Shown here: one piece after another, positions 22,728-50,228 of the stretch
Position numbering within the stretch: the first letter of the stretch is position 1
How the letters are laid out: the number at the start of each line of letters is the position of its first letter
Source of the DNA: an uncultured Cytophagales bacterium
GTDB lineage: Bacteria; Bacteroidota; Bacteroidia; Cytophagales; Bernardetiaceae
Assembly (NCBI GenBank): GCA_963761725.1
Contig: CAVXHP010000006.1
Span: forward strand, 381,534-445,533
Reading direction: 5' to 3'
DNA: 64,000 nucleotides
Notes under the pieces: model-generated
What the model was told of the DNA's origin: nothing
The model's input: only the letters and a program-made list of their open reading frames with translations
The model's database searches: none
Made by a program: the position numbers and the translations under genes

Positions 22728-22805
22728 AAAAATTCTATATCCTTTTTTTGGTTTACTTTATATTTAACAGACTGGGAAGTCTGTTTTACAAAAAAAATAA
22801 TTATC
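22728..22805. repeat. ~78-bp direct repeat, left copy, bracketing the toxin-antitoxin segment
   Basis: aaaaattctatatcctttttttggtttactttatatttaacagactgggaagtctgtt... repeats at ~85% identity at 23467..23545. Confidence 0.75.
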
Positions 22806-22872
22806 TAACAAAAGTCTCTTAAGACTTCAATCAACTTTATTATTTCAGAGGGTAAAAGCGATGCAAATTTTG

Positions 22873-23140
22873 CTATGATGATAGGTTCTCAATAGTTACT
22901 ATTTTATTACACCTAACCTCACTTATTTTTGGTAATGGTCTGGATAAATATTGAATTTCTAAAAGAAATGAAAATATATCATTTCTTAGATTACTTGTTA
23001 TTGGACAAAGCAAATAATCATTATCTAAAGAATTTGAAATCTCATGCTTACAACAATTGCAGGTCGTCTTTTACTTTGAGAAAAATTATCAGAATAGGGA
23101 TAATTTACCCAAACTAAATCGCCTTGTTGGTATTTGCTCA
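22873..23140 (-). pseudogene. MazF/PemK-family toxin, frameshifted
   Basis: Hand-translated minus strand: MSKYQQGDLVWVNYPYSDNFSQSKRRPAIVVS... (PemK N-terminal signature). After a frameshift near 23040 it continues in another frame as ...DYLLCPITSNLRNDIFSFLLE...RCNKIVTIENLS. The ATG overlaps the upstream ORF stop (ATGA). Confidence 0.6.
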
Positions 23141-23395
23141 TTTATCTTGAAGTTGAGTTTCTTTAAAAAAATCGTCCCAAATGTTATCTTCTTCTGAATC
23201 CCAACTATTTTTGAAAGATTGCAAACTCAAATCTGTAAGCTCATCTATTTTTAATTCAGTTTCTACATCATCAATTTTTTCTACTTCTATATTTAATCGT
23301 TTAGCCATTTGAATTAAAATAGCTAAATCATTTAGGTTATTGGTTTTAAAAGATACATTCATAATTTTATCTAGTTGATTTTCACTAAAAATCAT
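23138..23395 (-). CDS. putative antitoxin partner of the MazF-like toxin (85 aa, family not recognised)
   Basis: Small acidic ORF immediately upstream of the toxin remnant, with its stop overlapping the toxin start in classic TA operon geometry. Confidence 0.4.
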   Translation of the reverse strand: MIFSENQLDKIMNVSFKTNNLNDLAILIQMAKRLNIEVEKIDDVETELKIDELTDLSLQSFKNSWDSEEDNIWDDFFKETQLQDK

Positions 23396-23466
23396 TTACT
23401 AATTCAATATACAAAAATCGTTTCAAATTTTCGTGTTTATCTACAAAAAAAGGATACAGAAATATG

Positions 23467-23545
23467 AAAAATTCTATATCCTTTTTTGATTTACTTTATA
23501 TTCAACAAATTAGGAAGTCTGTTATCCAAAAAAAATTAATTCAAA
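23467..23545. repeat. ~78-bp direct repeat, right copy
   Basis: aaaaattctatatccttttttgatttactttatattcaacaaattaggaagtctgttatcc... Extends into the purL stop codon. Confidence 0.75.
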
Positions 23546-25764
23546 TACTTCGGCAAAGTGGCCTCAAATTCTTCTCTTGCTTCATCTACCGAAAGCCAAA
23601 TATTTCCATCTATCTGACATACTTTTTCAGCAACTACACTTCCAAGATTTGAAAAATCTACATTATTAGTTTTAAGTATCGTTTCAAAATTTTCTTTCTT
23701 ATCTTGAGAAACCGAAACGACAACTCTACTCTGACTTTCCCCAAACCAAAACGCATCTTTACGAACTTTATGAGAAGTAGTCTTGACAGAAAAACCTAAC
23801 TCTTTACTGGCTGCCATTGCTGATTCTGTAAGGGTTACGAAAAGTCCACCGTCCGAAACATCATGAGCAGAAACGATAAGTTTGTTTTTGATAAGCTCTA
23901 AAATCGTTTTTTGAAGTTTTGCTTCTTCTTCCAAATCAATAAACGGAGCAGGAGAGGCTTTGTATTTGTGATAGGAATACAAATATTCGGATGAAGAAAT
24001 ATCATTTCTTGATGTTCCTAACTGATAAATAATATCGCCTTCATTTTTAAAATCTAATGTCATTTTGAGTTTAATATCCTCCAAAAGACCCAACATTCCG
24101 ATGGTAGGCGTAGGAAAAACAGGACCTTCATCAGAAGATTGATTATAAAAACTCACATTTCCACCCGTTACAGGCGTTTTCAGTTTTTCACAAGCTGCTC
24201 TCATTCCCTTTATTGCTCCCACAAAATGCCAATATACTTCTGGAATATACGGATTTCCAAAATTCAAACAATTCGTAATCGCAACAGGCTCGCCACCACT
24301 ACAAACAATATTTCTTGCAGCTTCACAAACGGCTATTATCGTTCCTTTTTCTGGGTCTGAATTTACATAACGAGAATTACAATCTACCGAAATAACAATA
24401 TTTTTATTTGTTCCTTTTACGTTTACAATCGCTGCATCAGAAGGCTGATTGGTAGAAGTATTTGCCGTTCCGACCATTGAATCATACTGTTCTGCAATCC
24501 AACGACGAGAGGCAATATTTGGATGACCAATTAAAAATTTAGCAATTTCTGGTAATTTTTCGTCTTCTGGCTCTTCTATTTCGTCAATCTGAAACTGTTG
24601 ATATTCACTAAAATAAGCTGGTTCGGTATATTCTCTGTGATAAACGGGTGCACCACCACCCAAAACTAAATCATCGGCAGGAACATCAGCCACCAACTCA
24701 TCGTTTACATAAAATTCTAAACGCTTCGAATCTGTAACTACTCCAATTTGAGCACAATTCAAATCCCACTTATCAAAGATAGCTTGTAATTCGGCTTCTT
24801 TTCCTTTCTTAATAACAATAAGCATACGTTCTTGAGATTCTGAAAGCAAAATCTCAAAAGGCTGCATATTTTTTTGTCTTGTCGGAACTTTATCCAAATA
24901 GATTTTCATTCCGTGTTCTCCTTTTGCACTCATTTCGGAAGTTGAACACGTAATTCCTGCTGCTCCCATGTCTTGGATTCCTATCAAATGACCTGTTGCG
25001 ATAGCTTCCAAGGTAGCTTCTAAAAGCAGTTTTTCTTGGAAAGGGTCGCCTACTTGTACGGCAGGAAGGTCTTTTATCGAATCATCTGAAATATCTTTTG
25101 AGGCAAATGAAGCACCATGAATTCCATCTTTTCCTGTTGCAGAACCTACAATATAAACTGGATTCCCTACGCCATACGAAATAGCAGAGGCAATTTTGTC
25201 TGTTTCTACAATTCCTGCTGAAAAAGCATTTACTAACGGATTTACATTATAGGATTCATCAAAATAAACTTCTCCTCCTACTGTCGGGATTCCAAAGGCA
25301 TTTCCATAATCTCCAATTCCTCTTACTACCCCTTTCACTAACCATTGCGTTTTTGGAGAAGTGATATTACCAAAACGGAGAGAATTAAGTTGTGCAATCG
25401 GTCTTGCTCCCATCGTGAAAATATCTCTATTTATTCCTCCTACACCTGTTGCTGCACCTTGGTAGGGTTCTAATGCTGACGGATGGTTATGCGATTCAAT
25501 TTTGAAACTACATGCCAAACCATCTCCAATATCCACCAAACCAGCGTTTTCTTCTCCTGCTTCTACAAGCATTCGTTCTGATTTTTTGGGAAGTGTTTTG
25601 AGCCAAACAATAGAATTTTTATAAGAACAGTGTTCTGACCACATAACAGAAAAAATACTGAGTTCAGTAAAATTAGGCTTCCTACCTAGAATTTCTTCTA
25701 TTTTGATAAACTCTTCTGCCGTAAGTCCTAGTTTTTGTGCTGTTTCGGTTGTCGTGATTTCCAT
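23536..25764 (-). CDS. purL: phosphoribosylformylglycinamidine synthase subunit PurL (FGAM synthase II)
   Basis: 742 aa. N-terminus [40 protein letters not shown] and AIR-synthase-related domains throughout. Confidence 0.95.
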
Positions 25765-26162
25765 AGTAATTGGGACGATTTGTAAAAACGAATAAGTATC
25801 AGGTTGGTATTTTTATGAATATACAAAAGTAACAATTTTTGAAGAGTTTGAGTAGTCTAAATCTTAATTTAAAATTTATTACAAAAAATTGTATTTTATG
25901 CTTTTTTTCTTTTACTTTATTTTTTCTTAGATACAATTGTTCAATAGCTAATTAATTCGTTTTTTTGAAACAACTACCTTAGTTATGGTGTTTTTGATTC
26001 ACGTAGAATGAAAGACTCTTAATTAGTTTTCTTTAAAAAAATTTTTTTCTTTTTTATTGTATTTTGTTTTGTAATTAACAAATTTCAGGATAAATATTTT
26101 TACTAAAACAACAACTAACTACTCAATTATCAGATACATTTTTTTATTATCTGTTTTCATAA

Positions 26163-28004
26163 ATGGCACTCAAATCATCTCTTCGTACACGTATTACAGT
26201 TGGCTTACTTTTTCTGCTAGGGATTATCATTCTTATTAGTGGGGTAGCTGTTTTTTATTTGACACGTCTTTCTAATTCATCGGATAAGATTCTAAGTGAA
26301 AATTATCAGACTATATTTTATGTTCAAACTCTAACAGAAAACTTTCAGGTTGTTTCCTCTTCTCAACTGCGGTATTTGGCAGATCAAGGTTTTGATTATG
26401 AGCTTTATAAAAAGTCAGATATGCTATCAAGTACATATATTGACTCATTATACCTTGTTATTGGAGATAAGAAAGAAAAGATATATTTAGATTCTCTCTC
26501 CTTAGGATATTCAAAGCTAGTAAAAGAGTTTGATGATGCAAGACAAGATACTTCTATTGTTCTGCCAGATATGGATTTGTATTACAACAAATTGAGATTA
26601 AACTTTCTTCCTGTAAGAGGTTATTTAGACAAGCTCAGAGAAATTAATCAAAATGAAATTATAGAAAAAAACGACTTTATACAAAGAAACACAGAAGATG
26701 CACTGCTTTATATGGCTATTATTGGTGGAATTTGTGTTCTGATTACTGTAGGTTTTATTTCTTATTTCCCTGTTTATTTGACAAAACCTTTGCACGATCT
26801 TTATTTGGCTTTGGAAGAAATGAGTAATAAAAACTATACCAAGCGTCTTTATGTAGGTTCGACCAATGAATTTGCACGATTGGCAACTTCTTTTAATAAA
26901 ATGTCTAGTAAAATAGCTGAATTCGAAAACCTAAACTTAGAAAAAGTATTAATTGAAAAAAAACGCACAGAAACGATAATAGAACATCTTCAAGATGGAA
27001 TAATAGGTGTAAGTGCTCAAAACAAAATTATTTTCATCAATCAAGTAGCTGAAATTTTACTTGATATGTCTTCAGAAGATGCTGCTGAGGTATATATCCC
27101 AAACTTACTTGTCAATAATGACATTCTTTACCACGTAATGGTAGATTTGATGGAAATAGACAACAGACAATCGTTCGCTGAAAAAACAATTAAAATTCCA
27201 TCAGCAGACCGAGATTTGTTTTTCTCTAGACAAGTAATGAGCCTTCCTGAAACAGAAGAACTTTCAGGACTTATTATTCTTCTCAAAAATGTAACGAAAT
27301 TTACAGAAATGGATGCTGCCAAAACGCATTTTATAGCTACCATTTCACACGAACTCAAGACTCCTCTCACTGCAATTCGTTTGAGTTTAGGCTTGTTAAA
27401 AGACAAAAGAATGGGATTGCTCAGTGAAGATCAGCTAGATTTGGTCAGTGATATAGAACAATCCACTGAACGCTTGTTTGCACTTACAGGAGAAATTCTT
27501 CAATTATCTCAAATTGAGTCTGGAAAAATAAAGATAAATCTTCAGCCTGTTGAGGTAGATGATTTAATAAAATACACTTTGCAAGCTGTAAAGGTATCTT
27601 CCGAACAAAAATTTTTATCCGTAGAAGCCGATACGGCTCCAAACTTACCTGTATTTTTTGCAGATATAGATAAGCTAAAATGGGTTATTATCAACTTTTT
27701 GACCAATGCTATACGGTATGCTCCCCAAAAATCAGAAGTGAGATTAAGCATTTATCCTGATAATAAAGGAGTTGTATTTTCGGTAACTGATTCAGGAAAG
27801 GGAATTAGTGAAATGTATCACTTAAAGATATTTGAAAAGTATTTTCAGATTCCTGATTCGGATGACAAGACCGATAAAAAAGGCTCAGGTTTGGGACTTG
27901 CCATTTGTAGAGAATTTATAGAAGCACATAAAGGCGAGATTTGGGTAGAAAGTGAAGTAGGAAAAGGCAGTACATTTTCTTTCTGGCTACCATTAGATTC
28001 ATAG
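26163..28004 (+). CDS. membrane-bound sensor histidine kinase
   Basis: 613 aa. N-terminal TM segments. HisKA H-box ISHELKTPLTAI. HATPase_c N/G boxes (LTNAIRYAP, GSGLGLAICREFIEAHKGEIWVES). Confidence 0.9.
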   Translation: MALKSSLRTRITVGLLFLLGIIILISGVAVFYLTRLSNSSDKILSENYQTIFYVQTLTENFQVVSSSQLRYLADQGFDYELYKKSDMLSSTYIDSLYLVIGDKKEKIYLDSLSLGYSKLVKEFDDARQDTSIVLPDMDLYYNKLRLNFLPVRGYLDKLREINQNEIIEKNDFIQRNTEDALLYMAIIGGICVLITVGFISYFPVYLTKPLHDLYLALEEMSNKNYTKRLYVGSTNEFARLATSFNKMSSKIAEFENLNLEKVLIEKKRTETIIEHLQDGIIGVSAQNKIIFINQVAEILLDMSSEDAAEVYIPNLLVNNDILYHVMVDLMEIDNRQSFAEKTIKIPSADRDLFFSRQVMSLPETEELSGLIILLKNVTKFTEMDAAKTHFIATISHELKTPLTAIRLSLGLLKDKRMGLLSEDQLDLVSDIEQSTERLFALTGEILQLSQIESGKIKINLQPVEVDDLIKYTLQAVKVSSEQKFLSVEADTAPNLPVFFADIDKLKWVIINFLTNAIRYAPQKSEVRLSIYPDNKGVVFSVTDSGKGISEMYHLKIFEKYFQIPDSDDKTDKKGSGLGLAICREFIEAHKGEIWVESEVGKGSTFSFWLPLDS

Positions 28005-28200
28005 AAAATTTTGAATATTTTCAGATTAATGCTTCTATTACGAATAATATAATGCAATTCTGTTTCAAAACTTATTTTATTTGGCTAGCATCTAATAAAA
28101 GTTTTACATAATTTTGCACAACGGCAAAAACGTTTATTCTACTGTTTTCGTTATATACCTTTAATTATTCATCAAATTTATTTAAAAATCAATCCTAACT

Positions 28201-28713
28201 ATGGCACTGCACTACAAAATAGATCAAATAGACAAACAGATTCTAGAAATTCTTCAAGAAAATGCTAAAATCACTAATGCTCAACTTTCAAAAGATATTA
28301 ATCTCTCACCTGCACCTACATTAGAACGTGTAAAAAAACTAGAAAATGCGGGTTATATCAAGAGTTATCATGCTCGTCTTGATGCTCAAAAATTAGGTTT
28401 GGGAGTGGCTACTTTCATTAGTGTAAAGCTAAATAAGCACAACAAATTAAGTAATGAAAATTTTGTAAACCAGATAAGAGCTATTGATGAAATAGTCGAA
28501 TGCCATTATGTTACAGGGTCTAGTGATTATGTTTTAAAGGTAGTTTCGAAGGATATAGAATCCTATCAAAGTTTGATAATGAATAAAATTAGTGAAATTA
28601 CAGAAGTAGATAATATGCAAACTATGGTAATTCTCAATACTATAAAGGATAGTGATTCACTTCCTATTCCAGAGGCAACTCCAGCCTTGATAAAAAATGC
28701 AGATAATGGTTAA
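28201..28713 (+). CDS. Lrp/AsnC-family transcriptional regulator
   Basis: 170 aa. HTH (IDKQILEILQENAKITNAQLSKDINLSPAPTLERVKKLE) plus RAM domain. Confidence 0.9.
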   Translation: MALHYKIDQIDKQILEILQENAKITNAQLSKDINLSPAPTLERVKKLENAGYIKSYHARLDAQKLGLGVATFISVKLNKHNKLSNENFVNQIRAIDEIVECHYVTGSSDYVLKVVSKDIESYQSLIMNKISEITEVDNMQTMVILNTIKDSDSLPIPEATPALIKNADNG

Positions 28714-28976
28714 GTAAAAATGCTCAATTTTGCTATATATTAAAATAGAAATAGTAAAAAAACAGGAATAAAAGACAACGTAATAATTCTGTAACATTAG
28801 ATTTTTAGCTTCTTAAATACTATGTTAATAGGTATTTACTAACACCTATTACTTGATTTCATTTTAAATTTTGTATTTTTGTTTAAAACTAATTATCTCT
28901 TGCTCTACTTTTTAAAGTAAATGTATAACTTAGTTTTATAAAAAATCTACTTTATTATAATTATTTCTATTCTGTT

Positions 28977-29531
28977 ATGCATATTGATCTTACCAATTCT
29001 GATAAAAAAGTAAAACTTTGTCGACAAGGTTTTTTGTACTTGCGAAAAAAAGGAATTCATGAAGGTTGGCGATTACATTCAGCGGGTTATGCTGTGCTTC
29101 AACAAATGAAGTTTGGAAAAATACAAACGCTTTATATGCACAAAATCTTGGCCGATACATTCATAAAGAAACAAGATACTGACAAGAGGCTTTTTGTGCG
29201 TATGCTTGACTCTAATAAGATAAATTGTCAGATAGATAATTTGGAATGGGCAACCATGTCAGAGCTTCGTCGTCATCAAACAAATCATACACCAAACAAT
29301 TATAGGGGAGTTTCGAAAGATGGCAAAAAATACAGAGCCATTATATATGATCAAGGTGAGCGAATTTATTTAGGTGTCTTCAATACTCCTGAGCTTGCCG
29401 CAGTTGCTTATAACCAAGAATCATTGAAGAGATTTGGTGTAACTGAAAGTCTGAACGAGCTTCCAAGTCCTTTAGATATGAGTCCTCCTCCTACACGAAA
29501 TGAAGTTACAAATGCAAGAGGAAGTAAATAA
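28977..29531 (+). CDS. AP2-domain-containing protein (HNH-homing-endonuclease-associated AP2-like DNA-binding domain)
   Basis: 184 aa. Central YRGVSKDGKKYRAIIYDQGERIYLGVFNTPELAAVAYNQ matches the AP2/ERF-like fold found in phage/HNH_3 proteins. Sits in an AT-rich intergenic context. Confidence 0.5.
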   Translation: MHIDLTNSDKKVKLCRQGFLYLRKKGIHEGWRLHSAGYAVLQQMKFGKIQTLYMHKILADTFIKKQDTDKRLFVRMLDSNKINCQIDNLEWATMSELRRHQTNHTPNNYRGVSKDGKKYRAIIYDQGERIYLGVFNTPELAAVAYNQESLKRFGVTESLNELPSPLDMSPPPTRNEVTNARGSK

Positions 29532-29553
29532 ATAGTAGTACTCAAATTTCTTT

Positions 29554-30072
29554 TTAGTCTAAGAGTACCTGTTTTTGGTCTAACTTATCTAAAAATCTTA
29601 CTTTGTAATTATCTAGGTAATCTTGATAAAATTTCCCATTTATCCATTCCGATTCTAGAGTAGCTTCCCATCTTTCATAAAATGTGATGGCTGGAGTATT
29701 CCAATCCAAAACTTGCCATGTCATCATATTTGTATTTTGGCGTTTGGCTTCTAAAATAGTAGCTTCAAATAAAAGTTTTCCTATTCCTTCACCTCTATAT
29801 TCTTCATTTACTAAAAAGTCTTCTAAATACAAACAGCGTCCTTTCCAAGTGGAGTAACGAATATAAAAAAGTGAAAAACCGATAATTCTATTACCTTGCT
29901 CTGCTACAATTGCACCATATGCAGGATTATCACCAAATCCATCAAGTAGCATTTGTCCGGGTGTAGTATCTACTTCATGTTCAGCTTTTTCATAAATGGC
30001 AAGCTCAACAATTAAATCAAAAATTTGAGGTACATCTTTTTCAGTAGCTCTGCGTATTGTTGTTTTTTTCAT
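29554..30072 (-). CDS. GNAT-family N-acetyltransferase
   Basis: 172 aa. Acetyl-CoA binding motif VNEEYRGEGIGKLLFE. Confidence 0.9.
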   Translation of the reverse strand: MKKTTIRRATEKDVPQIFDLIVELAIYEKAEHEVDTTPGQMLLDGFGDNPAYGAIVAEQGNRIIGFSLFYIRYSTWKGRCLYLEDFLVNEEYRGEGIGKLLFEATILEAKRQNTNMMTWQVLDWNTPAITFYERWEATLESEWINGKFYQDYLDNYKVRFLDKLDQKQVLLD

Positions 30073-30245
30073 AATTAATTTAGTTGTGTAGTACAGACTT
30101 TCTAGTCTGTGTAAAAAACAATAATTTCATTCTAATTTGTAAAAATAAAACAAAAATAAGTGTTTCTCTATTTTAGTGTGTAAATTTGTCAAATTAAAAG
30201 TACACAAATTATTTTTGCCAATCTATTTTCAATTTATTTAGAAAC

Positions 30246-31223
30246 ATGTCTGATTCTTCATCAATTTTGACTATTCCTCTACAAATTTCAGTTGTTATTC
30301 CTCTTTTCAATGAAGACGAATCGCTCCCTCCATTGCATGATTGGATTGTAAAAGTAATGGAAAATAATAATTTTTCGTATGAAATCATTTTTATAAATGA
30401 TGGTAGCACAGATAATTCGTGGAAGGTAATTGAAGAGTTAGCAAGTAAAAATAAAAATGTACGAGCAATTTGTTTTTCAAGAAATTATGGAAAATCACCT
30501 GCTTTAGATGCAGGGTTCAAAATTGTAAAAGGGGAAGTAGTAATTACAATGGACGCAGATTTACAAGACAGTCCAGACGAAATTCCTGAATTATATGATT
30601 TAATCAAAAATCAAAACTTTGATTTGATTTCAGGCTGGAAAAGAAAACGTCATGACCCACTTTCCAAAACACTTCCTACCAAACTTTTCAATGCTGCTAC
30701 TCGTGCATTTTCAGGAATCAAACTCAATGATTTTAATTGTGGATTAAAAGCCTATAAAGTTGAAGTAGTCAGAACATTAAATGTCTATGGAGAAATGCAC
30801 CGTTACCTTCCTGTTTTGGCAAAATGGAATGGCTTTACAAAGATAGGCGAAAAAGTAGTCGAACATAGAGCAAGGGAGTTTGGAAGCACAAAATTTGGTT
30901 TAGAACGCTTCACAAACGGACTTTTAGATTTACTTTCTGTTACCTTCATTACACGTTTCAAAAAAAAACCGATGCACTTTTTTGGTACACTCGGTTTGCT
31001 TTCCTTTTTTATAGGCTTCGGGATTGCTCTTGCAATTCTTGTAGAAAAATTCTTTGGAGCAAATGTCATAACAGAACGTGAACCCGTCGATATGCCTATT
31101 TTTTATATTTCACTTCTTGCAATTAGTGTAGGAACACAACTTTTTTTGGCTGGTTTTATTGCCGAAATGATAGTAATTCACTCTAATGAAAGAAATGATT
31201 ATATTATTTCAAAAGAATTGTAA
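30246..31223 (+). CDS. family 2 glycosyltransferase (polyprenol-phosphate/dolichol-phosphate sugar transferase-like, GtrB/ArnC-like)
   Basis: 325 aa. VVIPLFNEDESL, FINDGSTDNS, TMDADLQDSP DXD region. Two C-terminal TM helices. Confidence 0.85.
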   Translation: MSDSSSILTIPLQISVVIPLFNEDESLPPLHDWIVKVMENNNFSYEIIFINDGSTDNSWKVIEELASKNKNVRAICFSRNYGKSPALDAGFKIVKGEVVITMDADLQDSPDEIPELYDLIKNQNFDLISGWKRKRHDPLSKTLPTKLFNAATRAFSGIKLNDFNCGLKAYKVEVVRTLNVYGEMHRYLPVLAKWNGFTKIGEKVVEHRAREFGSTKFGLERFTNGLLDLLSVTFITRFKKKPMHFFGTLGLLSFFIGFGIALAILVEKFFGANVITEREPVDMPIFYISLLAISVGTQLFLAGFIAEMIVIHSNERNDYIISKEL

Positions 31224-31230
31224 CACACCT

Positions 31231-32427: not shown

Positions 32428-32708
32428 GATATATAAAAGTTTCAGTTGAAAAAATGGAATTCCTAATTATAAAAAAATCGAAAAATTAAAAGTTACAGCA
32501 AAAAAATCTTCCTTTGTAATTAAATGTTAAAAGTAACTATTTTTAAAGATTTCACAAAGACTATTTTTCAAACACTCATTTCAAAAAAAAGTTTAATCAA
32601 TTCTAAATTTTATCTTTGTTGAATGAATACTATTCAAAAAGCTGTATTTGCAAAACCAGAATCAAACAAAATCAATTGTTGATAAAATCGCTAAACCACA
32701 AGTCAAAA

Positions 32709-34035
32709 ATGAATTCATTTATCTATATTATTCTTCTACCTATTTTAGTTTTCTCTTGTACAAATAATAAAGTTGCTATTTCTAAAGAAGAAAATAAAAC
32801 AGAAACAATACATCAAGATTCTAGCAAAATAAGCCAGAAAGGAATTGTAATAGCTACTAACAAACTAATTATAGGAGCTGCACAAACTGAAAAGTATTTT
32901 GATTTAATCAAAAATAAGCGTGTCGGACTAGTTGTAAATCATACTTCAGTAGTTTATACTGAAAATGATTCACTTCATTTAGTAGATTTTTTACTCAAAA
33001 ATAAGAATGAGAACAAAATAAATATACAAACAATTTTTGCACCCGAACACGGTTTTCGGGGAACAGCAAGTGCAGGAGAGACTATCAAAAATGGAAAAGA
33101 TACAAAAACAGGAATTGATATAATTTCTCTTTATGGTAAAAACAAAAAACCAACTAAAGAACAGCTAAATAATATCGATGTTTTGATATTTGATATTCAA
33201 GACGTTGGTACCCGTTTTTATACTTACATTAGTACAATGCACTATTGTATGGAAGCTGCTGCCGAAAATAACAAACAAATAATTATCTTAGATAGACCAA
33301 ACCCAAATGGTTTTTATGTCGATGGTTGTATCAGAGAGGAAAAATACGAAGTCTTTTGTAGGAATGCACCCTATTCCGATTGTTCACGGACTTACAGTAG
33401 GCGAGCTTGCCAAAATGATTGAAGAAGAAAAATGGCTCAAAAATGAAAAAAAAGAAGTCGTACAATTAAAAGAAAATTTAATACTTATTCCTTGTCAAAA
33501 CTATTCTCACAAAGATAAATATAATTTACCTACTGCACCTTCTCCAAACCTACCTACTCAAAATTCAATTTTAATTTATCCTTCTCTATGCCTTTTTGAG
33601 GGAACAACAATGAGTGTCGGACGTGGAACAACTTTTCCTTTTGAAGTAGTAGGACATCCAAAATTCCCCAAAGAAAATGCATCTATTTCATTTACTCCGA
33701 TACCAAACGAAGGAGCAAAATACCCTCCTCTTGAAAATAAATTATGTTATGGAATCGATTACCAAACCCAAGAATTAGAAAGTAGTTTTTCATTAAAGCC
33801 TATTTTAAACTTTTATCAAATTATGAAAGATAAAGACTTAGAGGGAAAAGATAAAAGAGATAAAAAAGATAATTTCTTTAATTCCTACTTCAACACACTT
33901 GCAGGAAATGATAAACTACAAGCACAAATAAAAGAAGGTCTATCGGAGCAGGAAATCAAAGCAACATGGAAAGAAGATTTACAGACCTATAAAATAATGA
34001 GAAAAAAATATCTATTATATGAAGATTTTGAGTAG
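32709..34035 (+). pseudogene. DUF1343 / NamZ-like exo-beta-N-acetylmuramidase lipoprotein, split by a frameshift near 33335
   Basis: ORFs 32616..33422 (lipoprotein signal MNSFIYIILLPILVFSC from 32709) and 33307..34035 contain DUF1343 motifs (VGLVVNHTSV, DIQDVGTRFYTY, SFVGMHPIPIVHGLTVGELA). The frames join at gaggaaaaatacgaag. Confidence 0.65.
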
Positions 34036-36976: not shown

Positions 36977-37001
36977 GTTTAAATATTATTTCTACTTCAA
37001 T

Positions 37002-37234
37002 ATGAGTGTCATTGGCAAAAATCAAAATAGGCATTTATTAGCTACAGAGTAGCTTTACCTTGGTAGAACAAAAGTAAAATTAATTTGAAAAGCTACAGCG
37101 TAGCGTAACTTTATTTTTAATTGCCAATTGCAAGGTTTCGCTGCTCTGTAGCTCTATTAAAGTACGTTTTTGATGTTCTACCAAGGTTACGTTGCGGCTA
37201 CAACTAAAAGTCAATATCTGAAAATAACATTCAT
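37002..37234. repeat. MITE-like palindromic repeat, family A, copy 3
   Basis: atgagtgtcattggcaaaaatcaaaataggcatttattagctacagagtagc...aaagtcaatatctgaaaataacattcat. Aligns with copies 1 and 2. Confidence 0.8.
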
Positions 37235-37945: not shown

Positions 37946-39366
37946 AATGAAATTCTTTTATTCCCTTTCACTATTTCTATTCATTTCTTCTTTATCTTTG
38001 CTCAAAAAACTCAATTACCTATCTCTGAATATGACCCTAAAATTTATGAAATTATAAAAAATACTTCTACTCAAAATGTAGAAAACGATGTCAAAAAATT
38101 AGCAGACTTCGGAACTCGTCATACGCTTTCTGATACTGTTTCAGAAACTCGTGGAATTGGTGCAGCCAGAAGATGGATAAAAGCAGAGTTTGATAAAATT
38201 TCGGCAGCTTGTAATGGTTGTTTGGAAGTATCATATCAAAGAAATTTACTCAAAAAAGGAGCAAACGAACGCATTGTAAATGATGTTTGGATTGTCAATG
38301 TAATTGCAGTTTTGAGAGGAACAGAGAATCCAACTAGTTATGCTATAATGGCTGGTGATATTGATTCTCGTGCTTCTGATGTTACTAATTTTACAATTGA
38401 TGCTCCAGGTGCAAATGATAATGCTACAGGAATTGCTGGAATTTTGGAAGCTGCACGAGTTTTGTCAAAATATCATTTAAAGATGGAAGTAAGTTTAAAA
38501 ATAGTGTTGTATTTGCAGCACTTTCTGGAGAAGAACAAGGACTTTTCGGAGGACAGTTTATGGCAAAACAAGCCAAAAAAGACGGTTGGGATATTATTGG
38601 AGTAATTAATAATGATATGATTGGAAATATTGAAGGTGTTGATGGAGTAATTGATAATCGCAGTTTTCGTATTTTTTCAGAACCAACACCTGTTACAGAA
38701 ACTGAACAGGAGAGAAATAGAAGACGTTATTATGGAGGAGAAATAGATGGTGTTTCTCGTCAACTTGCTCGCTACATCCATTCTACTACTCAAAAATACA
38801 TGCCTGAAATGAACCCTACTATGATTTATCGCTTAGATAGATTTGGCAGAGGTGGACATCACAAACCTTTTAATGATGAAGGTTTTGCAGGAGTTCGTAT
38901 CATGGAAAGCCACGAAAATTATAACCGTCAGCATCAAGATATTAGAGTAGAAAACGGAATAAAATATGGCGATGTAGTAGAGGGAGTAAATTTTGACTAT
39001 TTGGCAAAACTTACTTCTGTCAATGCAATTGTACTTGCCAATTTGGGTTGGTCACCTTTAGCACCTCAAAATGTAAAAATTGGTGGAGCAGTTCAGCCTT
39101 CAACTACACTTTCTTGGGACAAGCCAAAACAAGACAATTCTACAATAATTGGTTACAAAGTTTATTGGAGAGAAACCACAGCTCCACAATGGAAAAATGC
39201 TCGTTTTGTGCCAAAAGAATTGTATCAAGATAATGGAAATACAAAAGAACAGATTACCTTTGTACTAGAAAATATCGTCATCGATAATTATCTTTTCGGA
39301 GTAGCTACGGTTGATGAAAATGGATATGAAAGTATAGTAAGTTTTCCAAAAGAAGTAATTCGATAA
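37946..39366 (+). pseudogene. M28-family aminopeptidase with C-terminal fibronectin-III-like domain, split by two frameshifts
   Basis: Signal peptide MKFFYSLSLFLFISS in frame A. Frame B 38001..38605 has DIDSRASDVTNFTIDAPGANDNATGIAGILEAARV. Frame C 38560..39366 has GQFMAKQAKKDGWDIIGVINNDMIGN... Frameshifts at ctcaaaaaactc (~38003) and catttaaagatgg (~38545). Confidence 0.65.
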
Positions 39367-39874: not shown

Positions 39875-40115
39875 AATTGAAAATGTAATAATTAATTCAA
39901 GTTGCGTATCACAGACTTCCTAGTTTGTGTAAATAGTAAAACAAGCCTTTTCAAAACAAAAATGCCTATCCATTCAGACTAGGAAGTCTGAAATACGTAT
40001 AATCCAGAACTTAAGTTAATTATATAAATGGGAACTTGAAATTTCAGGTTTCCATTTTTTTTGAAACCTATTATTGCATAGCTAATCAAAACAAAATTGA
40101 CAAATAGAAGTTGAA

Positions 40116-42602: not shown

Positions 42603-42649
42603 AAAGAAATTTTGTTAATTAAATTAATTTCAATTATACCAAACCACAA

Positions 42650-42682: not shown

Positions 42683-42747
42683 TATATCAAACAAATAGAT
42701 GAAGTAAATCCATTTTTAATCAAAACTCAAAATTAGTTACAGACAGG

Positions 42748-43908
42748 TTATTCTCCGTCTTCTAATTCTTCGTCTTCAAAGACAAAGTCTTCATCGCTTT
42801 CTTCCTCTTCACTTTCGTCTTCAGAAGTTGCAGCAATAGCTTTTTCTGCTTTTTTGTCTTTGCCTTTGGCTCCTTTATTTCTACCTTCTTTTTCTGCTAA
42901 GACTGATGCCTTATCCAAATCACGTAGTTGTTTTTCAAGGTCTGCCATTAATACCTCATCGTCTTCGATAAGAGCTTTTACAGAATCACGACCTTGTCCG
43001 AGTTTGTTGTCTCCGTAAGAGTACCAAGAACCCGATTTTTTTACGATATCCAAATCAACAGCCAAATCCAAGATTTCGCCAGCTTTAGAAATTCCTCTTC
43101 CATACATAATATCAAACTCAACTTGTTTGAAAGGAGGAGCTAATTTGTTTTTCTTGACACTTACACGAGTACGGTTACCCGTAATTTTGTCTCCGTCTTT
43201 GATTGCACCAATACGGCGAATATCCAAACGAACAGAAGAATAAAACTTAAGTGCATTACCACCCGTCGTAGTTTCTGGACTACCGAACATTACACCAATC
43301 TTATCACGAAGTTGGTTGATAAAGATACACGTACATTGCGTTTTGCTAATTACACCCGTCAGTTTACGAAGTGCTTGCGACATAAGACGTGCTTGAAGAC
43401 CCATTTTAGAATCTCCCATATCACCTTCTAATTCTGCCTTTGGCACAAGAGCAGCCACAGAGTCAATTACTACAATATCAATCGCAGTTGAGCGAATCAA
43501 TTGTTCGGCAATTTCTAAGGCTTGCTCACCATTATCAGGCTGTGAGATAAGAAGGTTATCCAAATCTACACCTAATGCTTGAGCATAGGCACGGTCAAAA
43601 GCGTGTTCTGCATCAATAAAGGCAGCTAATCCACCTTGTTTTTGTGCTTCTGCAATAGCGTGCAGAGTGAGCGTAGTTTTACCAGAAGACTCTGGTCCAT
43701 AAATCTCTACTACTCTACCACGAGGTAATCCACCAATTCCTAAAGCAATATCAAGTCCTAATGAACCTGTTGAGATGCTCGGAATATCTACTACATTATC
43801 GTCAGTCAATTTCATGACTGTTCCTTTTCCGTAAGTTTTGTCTAATTTTGCTAGAGTTACTTTTAGTGCTTCTAGCTTCTTTTTTTGTTCGTCGGCTGCT
43901 TTCGCCAT
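42748..43908 (-). CDS. recA: recombinase RecA
   Basis: 386 aa. Walker [10 protein letters not shown]. Canonical RecA core ([14 protein letters not shown]). Acidic C-terminal tail. Confidence 0.97.
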
Positions 43909-43960
43909 AATTGAAATATATATAAGAGTGATAAATTATTTACTGATTTTTGTGTCCTTT

Positions 43961-44286
43961 AAGGATAATACAAAATTAATAGTGCAGAACGTAAGCGATT
44001 TACGTTGTAAAAATTAATTTCTTAAAAAACATTAAATTTCATTTTCTAAGACTTTTTTTAATCCGAAGCTAAAGCATCGGCTACATTAAAGAACAATACA
44101 AAATTAAGAGAGCAGAACGTAAGCGATTTACATTCTAGAAATTATTTCTAAAAATAGTTTTAAAATTTAATTTTTAGAAGTATAATTTTTTCTTATTATC
44201 CGAAGCTAAAGCATCGGCTAGATTAAGAATACTACAAAGATAATGGTGCAGAACGTAAACGATTTACGTTGTGAAAAATAATTTGA
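43961..44286. repeat. ~2.5 tandem copies of a ~130-bp repeat in the recA upstream region
   Basis: Each unit contains gcagaacgtaagcgatttacgtt (palindromic aacgta...tacgtt) and atccgaagctaaagcatcggcta. Unit boundaries ~43961, ~44089, ~44224. Confidence 0.75.
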
Positions 44287-44342
44287 TTATCTGGTATTTT
44301 GAAGTAATTCGTAAAATATCAAATCTTTAAAGTTATTATTTT

Positions 44343-45107
44343 TTGTACTTTTACAGACTTATTAGAGTAAAACAAAATTCAAAAAATTATATAGTTACTA
44401 TGGAAAATTACACAATCAATTATCACAAAACCTTCTTGACTGATATATCAAAAGGTCTTCAAGCTGCTCTTGATGCCTACAAAAACCAATATATCAAACA
44501 AGCAATTTATGCCTTCGGAAGTCCGACCAGCAAAGACGACAAACTCAGTATAGAATTTGCGACAGCTCCACAAGGTCATTGCTTTACCGATTATGTACTT
44601 TTAGAACAGCAACTCAACAAACAAAAAATCTATCAACGTTATCTTGAAGAGCAATCAGAAGCGAAAGAAATACCTTTATTGAGTAAGTTTATTCCTTCTC
44701 TTGAAAAATCATATACTTCCCTTTTTAGAATTATAGATGTTGATGTAGAAGAGGGAATTATCTATTTTGATGATGTTTTGGGAGTAAAGGAAAATCAAGA
44801 AATTGCAATTATAGATAAAATACTTGCTGATACAATAGACAGAAATCCTATTAATATGAATTTTTTGATGTTCTTTCGTTTCATTCCTTTTTTAGGAGAT
44901 TTTATTGATATGAATGATGAGGAAGATGTAGTAAAGGGAATGACAAATGGGTATATTTATATATTCAATCCACAAGAAGAACATAAAATTATAAAAGAAT
45001 ACGAAAAAATGGCTGCCAAAGTACGAGTTTCGAAATCTTCTTCTAAAAGACAAATTGCTTTTACAGAACTAGATAAAAAGTACGGACAAAAATTGTTGTT
45101 GTCTTAA
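44343..45107 (+). CDS. hypothetical protein
   Basis: 254-aa ORF (alternative start MENYTINYHK at 44401). No recognisable family. Confidence 0.4.
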   Translation: MYFYRLIRVKQNSKNYIVTMENYTINYHKTFLTDISKGLQAALDAYKNQYIKQAIYAFGSPTSKDDKLSIEFATAPQGHCFTDYVLLEQQLNKQKIYQRYLEEQSEAKEIPLLSKFIPSLEKSYTSLFRIIDVDVEEGIIYFDDVLGVKENQEIAIIDKILADTIDRNPINMNFLMFFRFIPFLGDFIDMNDEEDVVKGMTNGYIYIFNPQEEHKIIKEYEKMAAKVRVSKSSSKRQIAFTELDKKYGQKLLLS

Positions 45108-45117
45108 TTAAATAATT

Positions 45118-47860
45118 CTAAAACTTAAAACGAACAGAAGCCAAAATTTGTCGTGGTCGCAAATCAAAAACAGTTTGTGTATAAAAAAAACTAGAATTAG
45201 AAATATTCACAAACTGTTTTGTATTCAGAATATTAGTCAGAGAAAGTTCTAAATCAATAGATTTTTTGACAAACGTATATCTATAAAGCATATCCAAAAA
45301 CTGGCTATTTTGAGTAATTGCATTGTTTGCTTCTATTTTATTCTGATAAAAATCTGCTTTTAGAGAAATATAATTTGCACTATTTGGATAAATGCTAAGT
45401 GAGATTTGATGTTCTTGTTGTTGGATTGTGTTTAGTCTTTCATCAGAAATAGTGGCATTCAGAAATGAAAAACGGTTTGAATACGTCAGACCAAAATACT
45501 TGCTAAAATCAGTATTTATTTTTCCTCCAAACTGTATATTCTGATTCTGGACTTGCTGTAAATTTTCATTAATAGAAACTAGGTTTTGGGAAAGATTGAA
45601 AGATGAATTTAGTGAAAAGGTAGTCTTTATTTTATAGAAAAATTTGCTTGCTGTTGAGTTTATTACATGCGAAGTAAAGTAATTAGTCCTCAAAATTCCT
45701 CTCAGAATAGCCGTTCCGTTCTCATCAAATTCGTTTTGCCAGATCAGGTTGGTCTTTCCATAACTATAAAAATAAAGTCCATTAAAAAAAATAGAATTGA
45801 TAGGATTTCGGTAACTAATTCCTGCATTGAGCGTAGAATTGAGTGTTTGCTGAAGTGGAACATCATTTCTTGTAATGCTTCTATAATTCTGCAAAATATA
45901 TGCTTCATAAAGCCGATTTATTTTACCAAAATCATTATTCAATCTTGCTCCTGCTGACATTTTCCAGTAATTACTCAACTCTTTTGCAACTCTCAAACTC
46001 GGTTCAATGGTTAGGCGTTCTAGCTTTTCAGTTTGGTTTTGTAGTTTTTTATCTATATCAAAATAATGTAGAGAAATAGGAACATCAAAATTAATTTTCC
46101 AGTTTTTCTTTTGATACTGCGTTCCTATTTCTGCAAAGGCTGTATAATGAGCAAAGGAAAGCTCATTTTGAAACTCATTTGATAATCTTAGATTTTTTGA
46201 ATCTGTTTCGAAAGCAGTATTGTTTTCTAGGTCAATAGAACTTTCTAATTTTTGGTAACTGGTCTGTATTCCCAGTTTTGGAGAAAGCGAAACACCTTTT
46301 ATTTTTTTGGTAAAACTGACCGAATTTTGAGTAAAAAATGTTTTTTGATTTAGATTTTGGATAATCTTGTTATAGTTTTCCACACTATCATTTGCAGCAA
46401 AATTTGTTAGATTAATTATCAGTTCTGGGAAAACAACAGGATTTACACCCAAAGAAGGAACATGATTTTGATAATTAATAGTAGAATTAAAATTTAGCAC
46501 ACTTTTTTTAATTGATTTGTTTGGAATAATCCAGTTTAGCGTATTGCTAATTTCTGAAAAAGGATTCAAAACGTCTTGAGAAATGGTTTGAATATCACTC
46601 TGTTCTTCTCTTCTAATTATTCCATTCTGACTGTTCCATTGTCTTTTTATTTCCAACTCATTTTTAAAATAGTTTTGTTTTGAGTTTTTGGTGAGAATAA
46701 ATTTTGCTTCTAGCTCACTATTTACAAATCTATTTTGAGTATTTTCTAGTAGATTTATTTCAGAATTAGGCAGGAAAATGGTTGTTTGTGTATTTCCAAA
46801 CTGCTTTTGAGTATCATTGAAATAAGAAAGATTTGTTTTTAGCTGATAGTCATTTTTTAGTTTAGTCAGAAAATTAAAACTAAATAAATGAATTTGATTA
46901 TTGAGCCAACGATTTTGAGTAAAATTAGGCGTATTCAACCTTTGAACAGAAAGCCAATCTATTTTTTTAGGAACTTGAGAGTTGGCAATAAAATCTTCTA
47001 GCGTAAACGAACGAAGCTGAGAAGAAACGTCATTTCCAGTATTATTGGTCTGATAAGAAGCAATCAATTGATTTTTCTTTCCAAAAAACATCGGAGTTAC
47101 GTTTGCATCCCACAGAAAAGGAATAAAATTTTGATTATCTTGAATTAGACCACTTCCTAGTTTTGCTGTTCCTGTTGTGGTAATTCCATTTTTGAGCTTT
47201 ATGTTTAGCGAAGTATTATTCGAAAAAGTAAGTGAATCTAATGCTTTTATAGGTTGATGATTTTCTAGTATTTCTACTTTTTCTACAGCATCAGCAGGAA
47301 TATTTTTGTTTGCTAAATCGTATTTTGCCTCCAATAAATCTAATCCTTCAATATAATATTTTTCAATGGGTTTGCCTTGATACAAAATTTTTCCATCTGG
47401 CTGTACTTCTATACCAGGCATTTTGGAGAGTACATCGGCAATTACTCTATCTTTTTGAGACTTAAAACTCTCTACATCAAAACTAAGTGTATCACCTTTT
47501 CTAGAAATCGGATTTGTCTTTTTAAAAACAATTTCTTCTAATACTTGTACTTCACTTTCCAATCTAAAATCAATTGTCTGATTTTTATTTGCTATCTTCT
47601 GTTCTACTTTTTTGTGTGAAATATGGGTAATTCGGAGCAGTAAAGAATCTGCAGGCAAATTAAACTTTAAGATTGTATTTTCCATCACTCTTCGAAATAT
47701 AAAATGGCTTTACCAGTTCGCTATCTGTATTGAGAATAATTATGCTTGCATTTGAGATAGGATTATCAAACTCATCGGTCAATATTCCTGTAATTTGAGT
47801 TGTCTGTGCAGTAGCGTAAAAACACAGATTGAGAAATAGAATTGTAAATAAATTACGCAT
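45118..47860 (-). pseudogene. TonB-dependent receptor-like outer membrane protein (CarboxypepD_reg-like N-domain plus plug plus barrel), frameshifted near 47660-47690
   Basis: ORF 47660..47860 has a signal peptide and MRNLFTILFLNLCFYATAQTTQITGILTDEFDNPISNASIIIL. ORF 45118..47688 has a plug region (GIEVQPDGKILYQGKPIEKYYIEG) and ends VRFKF. Confidence 0.65.
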
Positions 47861-48173
47861 TTTGTGGCTAATTTTAAACCCTAAAAATTCTTAGCGATTT
47901 TTAGGGTTTTATAGTTTTTGGAAAGAATCAAAGAAAATAGTTTACTCTAATTCAATTGGATTATTTTCACGTTTTAGACGAGCTTCTGTATTTTTTTTCA
48001 TTCGTCATCGTTTTTGCCCTCCAGAAGATATTCATATCAGCAAATTTCAATTGTGGATTTTCAGTTCAAATTTCTTTTTCATTTCCCAAAATTCTTTTTT
48101 AGAAATTATTTTTTCAAGTTGGTCTACAGCATCATAAACGGTAGACTTTCCAACAGTCTGTATTTCTAACAAA

Positions 48174-48750
48174 CTAAATTGATAATGACTTTTCAGAGTC
48201 TGTAATTTGCATTATTGTACCCAATAATCCAATAAATTTATAAGGAAAAGCAGTCAATGGAATTTTAGTCGTGTACCAAGCTGTATAATTTCTACCTGCA
48301 AAATTAGTGGTTGCTTTTTGACATAAATAATTTCCTATAGTAAGAGTGTCATCTGAAAGTTTCCAGTCTAAATTTATTTCTTCCTGATAAGCAAATTCTT
48401 GTAAAGCAACTCTTTCATAATGATTAGTGACATTCTTTTCATTAAAAATAATATATGTATTTTTTGGGTTCTTAGGACGATCGGTTGGGTTTCCCATCAT
48501 GTTCATCAACTGCTGGTTACTAGAAGTAAATACAACAGAATCTCTAACAAATAGATCTTGGCTTAAAAAGTAACTTGCATTGTCAAACATATCCAGATAA
48601 AATAACTCATTACTGACTGAATTAACGTCCGTAGAATCTAATCTATCTGATATTTTAAATCGTAGATTAGCGATGCCCCGTTTGTGCTTTTGATAAAAAC
48701 GGAAAAATCAATAAAACCGTGAAGAGAAAGTATTTCATTTTGATTTGGTA
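48174..48750 (-). pseudogene. GLPGLI-family-like secreted protein, frameshifted at a T-run near 48700
   Basis: Signal peptide MKYFLFTVLLIFPFLSKAQ in one frame (from 48750). Remainder is in ORF 48174..48590 and its upstream open frame, with FIGLLGTIMQI near the C-terminus. Confidence 0.45.
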
Positions 48751-49327
48751 TTAGTAAAAATGAAGAGCAGTTATATGATTAATTAAATTGTTAGTCTAAA
48801 TTAAAAATTAATTATACAAATTTATTACATTATTTTTTTTAAAATTTTTAAAAGTTTTTTTTGAACAACCTTGTTTTTGTACCAAAAACAGAAAATATAC
48901 TTAAAAAATTTTCATTAAATAATTATGTTTACTAAAATGATTTTCTATACAATTAAACAGAACTCTTTTATATAGGTCAGTTCATAGAGCAGACCGTTTA
49001 TAAGCATTAGTAGATGGTCTGCCCTTCGGGACTGACCTATCTATTCAAAAAATGTCTAGTAATTATGATTTTCATAAAAGCCAACATTGATATTTTCTTA
49101 GCAAACTCAAAGACAAAAAAACCATAATAAATTTTGTGTTTCATTATGGTTTTATTTTTCGGAAAAATGTTTTTTTTAATTAACAATTACAGGTACATAA
49201 CCAGCCTTTCTGCCAAGAACGACAGGTTCCAGAACCCTCACACTTTTTATCTTAGTAAGGACAATCAGTATTGTAGAAACTCCAAGCTCTAACACTCTGT
49301 GTTATTTGTTTATTTCTCTATCTTATC

Positions 49328-49681
49328 TTACGTAATTTTCAAAACCTCAAAAATAACCATCAGTTCGCTTTCTGTAACATTTTTCCCTAAATAGTCATAA
49401 CGAAAAGTAGTAATTCCTCTTTCACTATATTCAACAGTTTCCATAAAAGATAGTAAATCTTTAGAAGGAATTTTAGAAAAGATATCTTTATAGTGAAAAT
49501 TAAGAACAATATCTAGTTCTTCTCTATTTGTAATCTTAGTAGGAAGTTTTTCAGAATTTACTACTTCTTTTTCTAGAAAAGATAAAACTGCTGTTTCCTT
49601 TGTCATTTCTTCTTTACTATTTACGCAAGAGAACAATCCTATCATCACAAAGAGCATCAAAAAATAAAATGAATACTTCAT
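49328..49681 (-). CDS. hypothetical small lipoprotein
   Basis: 117 aa. Signal/lipobox MLFVMIGLFSCVNSKEE. Confidence 0.45.
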   Translation of the reverse strand: MKYSFYFLMLFVMIGLFSCVNSKEEMTKETAVLSFLEKEVVNSEKLPTKITNREELDIVLNFHYKDIFSKIPSKDLLSFMETVEYSERGITTFRYDYLGKNVTESELMVIFEVLKIT

Positions 49682-50228
49682 AAAAAATGTATTAAATGTG
49701 AATAAATATAAACGTTTAAATAATCTCTACTTATTCATATATTTTCTTGCAAGAAATACCTTTTCTGACCTATTCGCAACCACATCAAAAAGATATAAAA
49801 TACACAAAGTAAGAGAAATAATAAAACATATCAAATAAATGATACAATTCTCAAATAAGACTTTAAAATTGTATTTATCTTTTATCAAATTCAATTTCTT
49901 AGCTATTTTTGAGAATAATTATTTGTTAATGACAATCTAAATTAAAAATTAAAAATTAATTATGCAAATTTATTACATTAATTTTTTTAAACTTTTAGAA
50001 GATTTTATTGAACAATTACTTTGTTGAGTTAGAAACAAAGAAAAATAACTGAAAATAGTTTCATCAAATAGTGCTATTTAATTTCATGTATTAAAATTTC
50101 TAATCCAATTAGCAATAAAAACACAAAAATGGTATTTTTGTAGTTAAATGTATAACAGACTTCCCAGTCTGTTACAAAAATAGATTGTATTTGCACAGAT
50201 TAAAAAATCTGTACTACTTGAAAAATAT

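Follow-up and report, generated by a model that had tools for sequence, protein, structure and literature searches.

Short palindromes of the form ACAGACT-N4-AGTCTGT recur between the genes of a 64,000-nt stretch of contig CAVXHP010000006.1 (positions 381,534 to 445,533, forward strand) from an uncultured Cytophagales bacterium of the Bernardetiaceae. The question is whether they are operators that define a regulon or copies of a miniature repeat, both of which had been offered in an initial annotation. The whole stretch, referred to below as the window, has about 31% G+C, and its proteins are closest to those of Bernardetia. The analysis supports the miniature repeat and makes it more precise: the palindromes very probably constitute one GTAG-tagged family of repetitive extragenic palindromes (REPs) and REP doublets forming hairpins (REPINs) of Bernardetia-like Cytophagales, probably moved by a REP-associated tyrosine transposase (RAYT) of the HUH-Y1 type. 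Directly visible in the DNA are the architecture and orientation of the units, their covariation, extragenic placement and doublets, and their presence/absence polymorphism among relatives.

Copies of the Element in the Window

The dispersed palindrome at intergenic sites is real. The significance of motif counts was evaluated with 100 shuffles of the window per pattern, none of which reached the observed number for AGACT-N3-6-AGTCT (4 found, 0.35 expected), for the heptamer ACAGACT (18 against 6.6) or for ACAGACT-N4-AGTCTGT with up to three mismatches (10 against 2.5). An nhmmer profile of oriented units recovered exactly seven copies at five intergenic loci (E <= 6e-4), the next match having an E-value of 0.095. 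All seven lie in non-coding DNA, although 75% of the window is coding. Copy number and density of the family were counted in the 64-kb window and in the compared loci of other genomes, which carry L-numbers as labels (L002 ... L124); the window has about one copy per 9 kb. The copies and the structures they form are as follows.

22708-22798, no strand assigned: ~90-nt direct repeat, copy 1, with a REP unit and a terminator-type hairpin AAAAAGRATACAGAA..TTCTATATCCTTTTTT
22766-22789, minus strand: REP unit, perfect, GTAA-A-ACAGACT-TCCC-AGTCTGT-T; hairpin of single-stranded DNA at -6.7 kcal/mol, z -4.1
23447-23536, no strand assigned: ~90-nt direct repeat, copy 2, directly 3′ of purL
23504-23527, minus strand: decayed REP unit, GGAT-A-ACAGACT-TCCT-AATTTGT-T, with two stem mismatches and a degraded head
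30088-30111, plus strand: REP unit with perfect stem, singlet, GTAG-T-ACAGACT-TTCT-AGTCTGT-G
39889-40022, plus strand: 134-nt REPIN-like doublet of units 39906-39929 (plus) and 39973-39996 (minus), heads outward, with extended inverted flanks
50150-50217, plus strand: second doublet, heads outward, of units 50150-50173 (plus) and 50194-50217 (minus), z -5.8
50150-50173, plus strand: perfect unit of the second doublet, GTAT-A-ACAGACT-TCCC-AGTCTGT-T
50194-50217, minus strand: diverged unit of the second doublet, GTAG-T-ACAGATT-TTTT-AATCTGT-G, with a compensated change of C-G to T-A

The palindromes at 22767-22784, 30093-30110 and 50155-50172 are perfect, while those at 39911-39928 and 39974-39991 contain one and two mismatches, respectively, the outer pair of the latter being T-A for A-T. 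What had been described as a half-site at 23507-23524 is in fact a full copy at 23505-23522, decayed by two mismatches. A seventh copy had been missed, at 50195-50212 (ACAGATT-AAAA-AATCTGT), 17 nt before the start of uvrC. The conserved tail reported to follow several palindromes is partly real; at 22767 the stretch ttttacaaaa reads, on the opposite strand, as the element's GTAAA head.

The gene names given initially for the GNAT, GT2, uvrC, Lrp/AsnC and TetR genes hold; purL and an Omp85-family gene are also named in the window. The unit at 22766-22789 lies 3′ of a disrupted PemK-like toxin open reading frame (ORF), directly before a terminator-type hairpin and 199 nt upstream of the start of an NHL/thioredoxin gene. 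The decayed unit is found 13 nt past the purL stop codon, ahead of a terminator-type hairpin. The singlet at 30088-30111 occupies the divergent GNAT/GT2 spacer, 21 nt from the GNAT start codon, and the 134-nt doublet is located between the stop codon of a 128-aa gene (39874) and the terminator-like hairpin of that gene (40026-40057). The two units of the second doublet precede the uvrC start by 57 and 17 nt. Thus, the placement described as mostly promoter-proximal holds only in part: at three of the five loci (22767, 23505 and the 39911/39974 pair) the copies have a stop codon on one side and a terminator-type hairpin on the other.

Unit Architecture and Folding

Copies were oriented so that the centre reads TYCY before alignment. 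The unit comprises 24 nt, GTA[T/G/A]-N-ACAGACT-TYCY-AGTCTGT-N', in which a guide-like 5′ head directly adjoins the foot of an 8-bp stem (N-ACAGACT / AGTCTGT-N') with a 4-nt pyrimidine-rich loop. Of 23 copies oriented in this way, drawn from the window and related genomes, 21 have GTA at positions -5 to -3 of the core; the fourth head base in the window is T in three copies, G in two and A in one, the remaining head being degraded. The head is one-sided, with no counterpart on the mirror side, so that the unit is oriented and two-fold symmetry is absent. Half-sites 11 bp apart, centre to centre, would suit a dimeric helix-turn-helix regulator on duplex DNA, but the one-sided head and the conserved, non-palindromic TYCY centre argue against an operator, as does the covariation of the arms within one lineage.

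Intact copies fold at -5.6 to -6.7 kcal/mol, and in the decayed unit at 23504-23527 hairpin folding is lost. Compensated stem variants include TCAGACT/AGTCTGA, ACAGATT/AATCTGT, ACAGACA/TGTCTGT and ACAGTCT/AGACTGT; G-T (G-U) wobble pairs occur in several copies. Inverted pairs of units able to fold as one hairpin are present in the window (two), L071, L100, L121 and L123; heads-outward REP dimers described in the literature are spaced 20-100 nt apart. The 134-nt doublet folds as a single long hairpin (-20 kcal/mol, z -5.6), its homologues in L071 and L100 have z-scores of -6.5 and -8.7, and heads-outward doublets as a whole span z-scores of -5.6 to -8.7.

No T-run of the kind expected of an intrinsic terminator follows the units, and the terminator scan called only the separate hairpin at 40026-40057. 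Rfam searches of the window and 18 motif-bearing loci returned only tRNAs and one SRP RNA, and the element itself had no match.

Orthologous Spacers in Close Relatives

The orthologous spacers were compared in L120-L124, which represent four close relatives with 87-91% protein identity. UvrC of the window is 91% identical to that of the metagenome-assembled genome (MAG) CAVRCG01 and 89% to that of Bernardetia sp. MNP-M8, and the GT2 protein is 89% identical to its counterpart in Bernardetia sp. OM2101. The presence and position of copies differ between these spacers:

GNAT-GT2 spacer: palindrome in the window; none in L122; diverged GTAGG-TCAGATT-TTG-AACCTGA at the same place in L123 and L124
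Spacer between the 128-aa gene and the Omp85-family gene: doublet between stop codon and conserved terminator in the window; absent in L121 and L122
Region upstream of uvrC: doublet at -75..-17 in the window; different doublet at about -260..-180 in L121; nothing in L120
3′ end of purL: copy in the window and in L123 and L124; absent in L122

Two changes in the diverged GNAT-GT2 copy of L123 and L124 are compensated, and a GT2 promoter-like block beside the palindrome site is conserved in all relatives compared. The L121 doublet upstream of uvrC is homologous to the window element 39889-40022. Density among the relatives falls to zero copies in 43 kb (L120 and L122).

Elements also recur among unrelated neighbours. 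The 134-nt doublet is 82% identical to L071 4322-4454, where the flanking genes are unrelated and the position non-syntenic. The segment consisting of the terminator hairpin, REP and toxin fragment is 88.6% identical to L070 over 394 nt, again with unrelated flanking genes. All-against-all BLAST of ORFs up to 2.5 kb from the motif in 119 loci revealed no recurrent neighbour gene. Since orthologous spacers differ and the doublet recurs non-syntenically, the palindromes behave as a mobile repeat rather than a regulon operator. In favour of the latter, several copies lie 20-140 nt from start codons, and two of three related genomes carry some palindrome of the family upstream of uvrC. However, the uvrC-upstream elements differ in type and distance, and sites are not conserved at the orthologous promoters even though the relatives' proteins are so similar.

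The Same Hairpin in Other Phyla

One genome per species was scanned for ACAGACT-N4-AGTCTGT, a pattern that fixed the inner seven stem pairs and left the outer pair free; it gave a sample of at least 127 matches, and all fractions in this section are among the matches listed. In 54 of 127 the centre, which the pattern left open, reads GGAA/TTCC or differs little from it. In the set with a TYCN loop a head is present at -5 to -2 in 39 of 61 copies (GTAG in 19, GTAT in 10, GTGG in 8 and GTAA in 2), and on the mirror side in 0 of 61. The pair flanking the core is Watson-Crick in 57 of 64 copies, against 21 expected, and may be G-C, A-T or C-G. In 59 distinct units, 98.3% of stem cells pair and six of the eight pairs have changed on both sides, a level reached in none of 500 shuffles; their outer pair is AU in 19, GC in 18 and CG in 13.

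Only three of the 61 cross-phylum copies fall inside ORFs, although 77% of their loci is coding. Heads-outward doublets are found in at least 11 loci of other phyla, and an Anaerolineae contig (L033) has seven copies in 8 kb, which occupy nearly every spacer. The hosts comprise Acidobacteriota (many of them Pyrinomonadaceae), Chloroflexota, Planctomycetota, KSB1, a Clostridia MAG and Bacteroidota. In Verrucomicrobia MAGs the core is present with a GGAAC head. Loci of the latter type (L002, L003, L035, L083 and L119) contain ACAGACT-GGAA-AGTCTGT inside a ~48-nt repeat, AGCGGAGTGCAACTCCGCTGGGCGC-[core]-GTTCC, with a second hairpin, which may be a distinct composite element.

The GACAGAC stem is also that of published REPtrons in two further lineages. 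REPs are described in the literature as species-specific and co-evolving with their own RAYT, so that near-identity across phyla would imply a fixed RAYT specificity or a host factor. A tentative explanation, which falls short of being probable, is that a clade of RAYTs (subclass 2.7 or 2.4) whose hairpin specificity is unusually fixed moved horizontally with its REP, or that a conserved host factor constrains the hairpin. Two other candidates were rejected: a phage feature, as the viral collection held only four exact matches, and transposases between inverted copies in L083 and L091, where the ORFs are ordinary genes.

Relation to Published REP-RAYT Systems

FlitA01 is a code that we take to denote Flexibacter (now Bernardetia) litoralis, and the organism names behind the codes IalbA01 and AaphA01 are likewise presumed from the codes themselves. 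GTAG-tagged REPs and REPINs are mobilised by RAYT, also named TnpAREP (Nunvar 2010, PMC2817692; Bertels & Rainey 2011, PMC3116915; see also Di Nocera 2013, PMC3733652; Quentin 2018, PMC6006769). By the published definition, a REP is extragenic, single or in inverted pairs (REPINs), and has a fully paired stem of 7-20 bp, a loop of 2-5 nt and, 0-2 nt away from the stem, the head GT[AG]G. For Bacteroidetes, Di Nocera 2013 (PMC3733652) lists the CGTC type only, and the GTAG type is not reported there.

Hairpins very close to the one studied here adjoin published RAYT genes. In Table S1 of Quentin et al. 2018 (PMC6006769), GTAGGACAGACTTTAGTCTGTC and GTAGGACAGACTTCAGTCTGTC flank the tnpAREP gene AFH48914.1 (subclass 2.7, 'IalbA01'), GTAGGGACAGACTTTATGTCTGTCC flanks ACS97067.1 (subclass 2.4, 'AaphA01'), and the REPtron tables of the same study place GTAGGACAGACTTYAGTCTGTC beside a RAYT gene. 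These REPs (GTAG-GACAGAC-TTTA/TTCA-GTCTGTC and GTAG-GGACAGAC-TTTAT-GTCTGTCC) have nearly the same sequence as those of the window; the forms compared are GTAG-GACAGACT-TTCC-AGTCTGTC in other phyla and GTAT-AACAGACT-TCCY-AGTCTGTT in the window.

For FlitA01, Table S1 of PMC6006769 lists three tnpAREP genes and, for each of them, separate REP families, among them GTAGCTCACTCTTTAGAGTG, GTAGGGAAAATGGCTTGCCTTTTCC, GTAGGTCAAAGGCTTGCCTTTGAC and GTACAGACGCACYGT... Of these, GTAGGGAAAATGGCTTGCCTTTTCC, listed beside tnpAREP AFM05599.1 (PMC6006769), matches the window over 25 of 25 positions at 56563-56587 (minus strand); this copy is flanked by the short-chain dehydrogenase and TetR genes and is conserved at the same place in a related MAG (L121, ~16464). 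A second FlitA01 REP occurs twice in the window at 18 of 20 positions (20070 and 20914). The finding of two FlitA01 REP families shows that the lineage carries REP-RAYT systems, working or recent, and that the window holds several REP families. Together, the near-same REPs beside published RAYT genes and the RAYT genes attributed to FlitA01 suggest by analogy that the ACAGACT family depends on a RAYT as well.

Several observations weigh against such dependence. A hidden Markov model (HMM) of the RAYT/TIRYT alignment (Di Nocera 2013) detected no RAYT gene in the window or in 124 loci (~1 Mb), and an HUH...Y..NP regular expression found none in the ORFs of the window and loci, the ORFs of L122-L124 standing outside both scans. 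Eighty RAYT/TIRYT-like metagenome loci of the acidobacterial type were without a copy of the hairpin, which excludes only that subfamily. The ACAGACT family is absent from the REPs listed for FlitA01 (PMC6006769); its head, mostly GTAT or GTAA, and AT-rich stem base fall outside the published RNAMotif rule for finding REPs, which would therefore miss it; and no target-site or excision footprint is readable in the AT-rich flanks.

The peptides that the core would encode do not appear among the intragenic REPs tabulated by Di Nocera 2013 (PMC3733652), and a full-text literature search for the hairpin sequence returned no relevant paper. The ORF at 20086-20823, considered as a RAYT candidate, was rejected: its product is rich in Cys, matches PRiA4_ORF3 weakly and is no transposase. 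Other REPs flank this ORF on both sides (20022-20097 and 20830-20941); the flanking units are of the GTAGCTCACACTTTAGCGTGAG type (three copies; 18 of 20 positions identical to the FlitA01 REP) beside GTAC-headed hairpins (GTACCGAAGACTTTAGTCTTCG, GTACCGTACCTTTTAAGGTGCG).

Alternative Explanations

It is very unlikely that the actual unit is the ~134-nt doublet with ~45-nt inverted ends and that the singlets are its broken halves. In both the element at 39889-40022 and its L071 homologue, inverted flanks (TAATTAAYTYAAGTT...) extend past the REP cores and the hairpin runs from one end to the other, and the 82% conservation between genomes covers the full 134 nt. Singlets with intact head and stem are, however, common (22767, 30093 and most copies in the relatives), the spacer between units varies widely, at 24-65 nt, and the part conserved across phyla is the head and hairpin only. 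Moreover, no transposase gene sharing these ends was found in any locus, and no target-site duplication is recognisable.

A purely RNA-level element, such as an mRNA 3′-end stabiliser, an attenuator or a small RNA, which selection would maintain site by site without any spread by transposition, is very unlikely as the origin of the copies. Such an origin would fit the position of three loci within 3′ untranslated regions upstream of terminators, where the copies have the same sense as purL, the toxin gene and the 128-aa gene, as well as the tolerated G-U wobble pairs and the reports that REPs stabilise mRNA. It is countered by the lack of an Rfam match and by the missing U-tract after the hairpin, which is thus not itself a terminator. 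Furthermore, presence is not conserved at orthologous genes, both orientations relative to neighbouring genes are seen across the copies, and a dispersed, non-syntenic spread needs a spreading mechanism anyway. As a secondary function, an RNA-level role is compatible with a REP origin, so that the two readings compete only over how the copies arose.

The operator of a dimeric regulator, as initially proposed, governing a stress/repair regulon through sites at uvrC, GNAT/GT2, Omp85 and other genes, is highly improbable, the sites being unconserved at orthologous promoters (L120-L124), the unit asymmetric, three loci situated 3′ of genes before terminators, and an element present in nearly every spacer of the Anaerolineae contig L033. 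An SOS/LexA box was rejected in particular, as the published Bacteroidetes SOS motifs GGA-N5-TCC and CTAA-N5-TTAG find no match. REPs are bound secondarily by host proteins (IHF, gyrase) according to the literature, and some protein binding is therefore compatible with the data.

Proposed Origin and Implications

For a RAYT-mobilised REP family, the most likely course of events is the following. A single-copy RAYT/TnpAREP of the HUH-Y1 type, encoded elsewhere in the genome, would recognise the hairpin and head on single-stranded DNA, and cutting and rejoining by this enzyme would spread copies into non-coding DNA. Copies would later decay, or stay where they do no harm; one such place is the gap separating a stop codon from its terminator, in which they would be co-transcribed as 3′ hairpins. 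For copies in 3′ untranslated regions or 17-57 nt ahead of start codons, secondary roles as mRNA 3′ hairpins, in protein binding or by interference with the GNAT or uvrC leader are possible, and the expression of neighbouring genes may be affected.

In annotation these sites should be masked as REP/REPIN repeats and not used for inferring a repair or stress regulon, since motif discovery on such a genome would otherwise yield a false one. With this family, GTAG-type REPs reach an AT-rich lineage of the Cytophagales, in which the relaxed head, GTAT/GTAA, would escape current REP-finding rules. Elements are seen to be gained and lost from species to species within a genus, and insertion can separate a stop codon from its terminator. 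The cross-phylum near-identity of the hairpin provides a testable exception to the view of REPs as species-specific.

Other Repeats and Disrupted Genes in the Window

The two ~90-nt direct repeats (87-89% identical) bracket a ~640-bp cassette (22708-23536) with an 85-aa ORF (23138-23395, minus strand) and a PemK/MazF-like toxin gene (22873-23141, minus strand) broken by a stop codon or frameshift. A fragment with the toxin, REP and hairpin is also found at an unrelated place in a related MAG (L070). This arrangement suggests a small toxin-antitoxin cassette that recombination at the REP/terminator module has either inserted or duplicated.

Several other repeats are short hairpin units, among them GTAG-headed palindromes of further families. 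At 16907-16990 there is a GTAGC-YGACAGT-TTTYA-... unit, forming an inverted pair between 16924 and 17126, with relatives at L115 103 and L123 18119. The pair GTAGA-AATTTGA-TTTA-TCAAATT / GTAAC-AACTTGA-TTTA-TCAAGCT at 2269-2300 is also present in L037 and L039. A 36-nt palindromic repeat, TTGTTCAAGTC-(AGACCTTCGGTAC)-AGACTTGAACAA, occurs in two copies of opposite orientation (5237-5285 and 57709-57745); it overlaps ACAGACT, which explains two heptamer matches outside the family.

Longer repeats comprise a ~200-bp dispersed element (4954-5162 and 36989-37195, 84-100% identical) with GCTACAGCGTAGC-type palindromes, one copy being 3′ of tuf, and three tandem units of ~130 bp (43958-44312), which are 66-77% identical and all bear a CAGAACGTAAGCGATTTACGTT palindrome; they lie in the intergenic region that separates recA (42748-43908, minus strand) from the ORF 44343-45107 (plus strand). 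A 55-nt, TTCGTAAT-rich repeat at 13917-13971 and 52123-52177 (93% identical) is also found in L027; in L122 the GNAT-GT2 spacer contains it in the form TTCGTAATTCGTAATT. About 12 tandem AGTTATT heptamers (15204-15301) stand directly 3′ of a gene of the alanine dehydrogenase/PNT family (13983-15215), and three to four tandem 249-bp repeats (12003-12949, 93% identical) lie inside a gene for a PKD-domain protein (11328-13112, minus strand).

Six genes of the window that are intact in relatives are split into two or three adjacent ORFs: those for a TonB-dependent receptor (5458-7829), a DUF808 protein (8149-9032), NamZ (32616-34035), probably an M28 peptidase (38222-39366), UvrC (50229-52074) and an Exo_endo_phos_3 nuclease (52183-53221). 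uvrC is divided into 406 and 225 aa, compared with 614-616 aa in relatives. These splits are either assembly indel errors or widespread pseudogenes.

Comparison with Known Systems

Correia elements of Neisseria, ERIC sequences and RUP-type miniature inverted-repeat transposable elements (MITEs) are co-transcribable, able to change the expression of neighbouring genes, and have defined terminal inverted repeats and target duplications. The window family resembles them in consisting of small (100-150 nt) intergenic inverted repeats, but its own trait is a GTAG-headed short hairpin unit that exists alone, and MITE ends and duplications are not shown. The FlitA01 REPs belong to the same genus-level lineage and differ from the ACAGACT family in stem sequence. 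Compared with the REPs of IalbA01 and AaphA01, the stem here is one pair longer (T-A next to the loop), the loop is TYCY and the host lineages are different.

From the GTAG REPs in general the family differs in its head, mostly GTAT or GTAA, in its AT-rich stem base, and in that a cognate RAYT has not been located. It is like them in having a hairpin of 7-8 bp whose loop is 4 nt long and rich in pyrimidines and whose foot carries a GTAG-like head of 4 nt (see GTAGGTCGGCCTTCAGGCCGAC and GTAGGGTGGGCTTCAGCCCACC), in extragenic placement, in the occurrence of both singlets and heads-outward dimers, in complementary stem changes, and in the presence of several families per genome.

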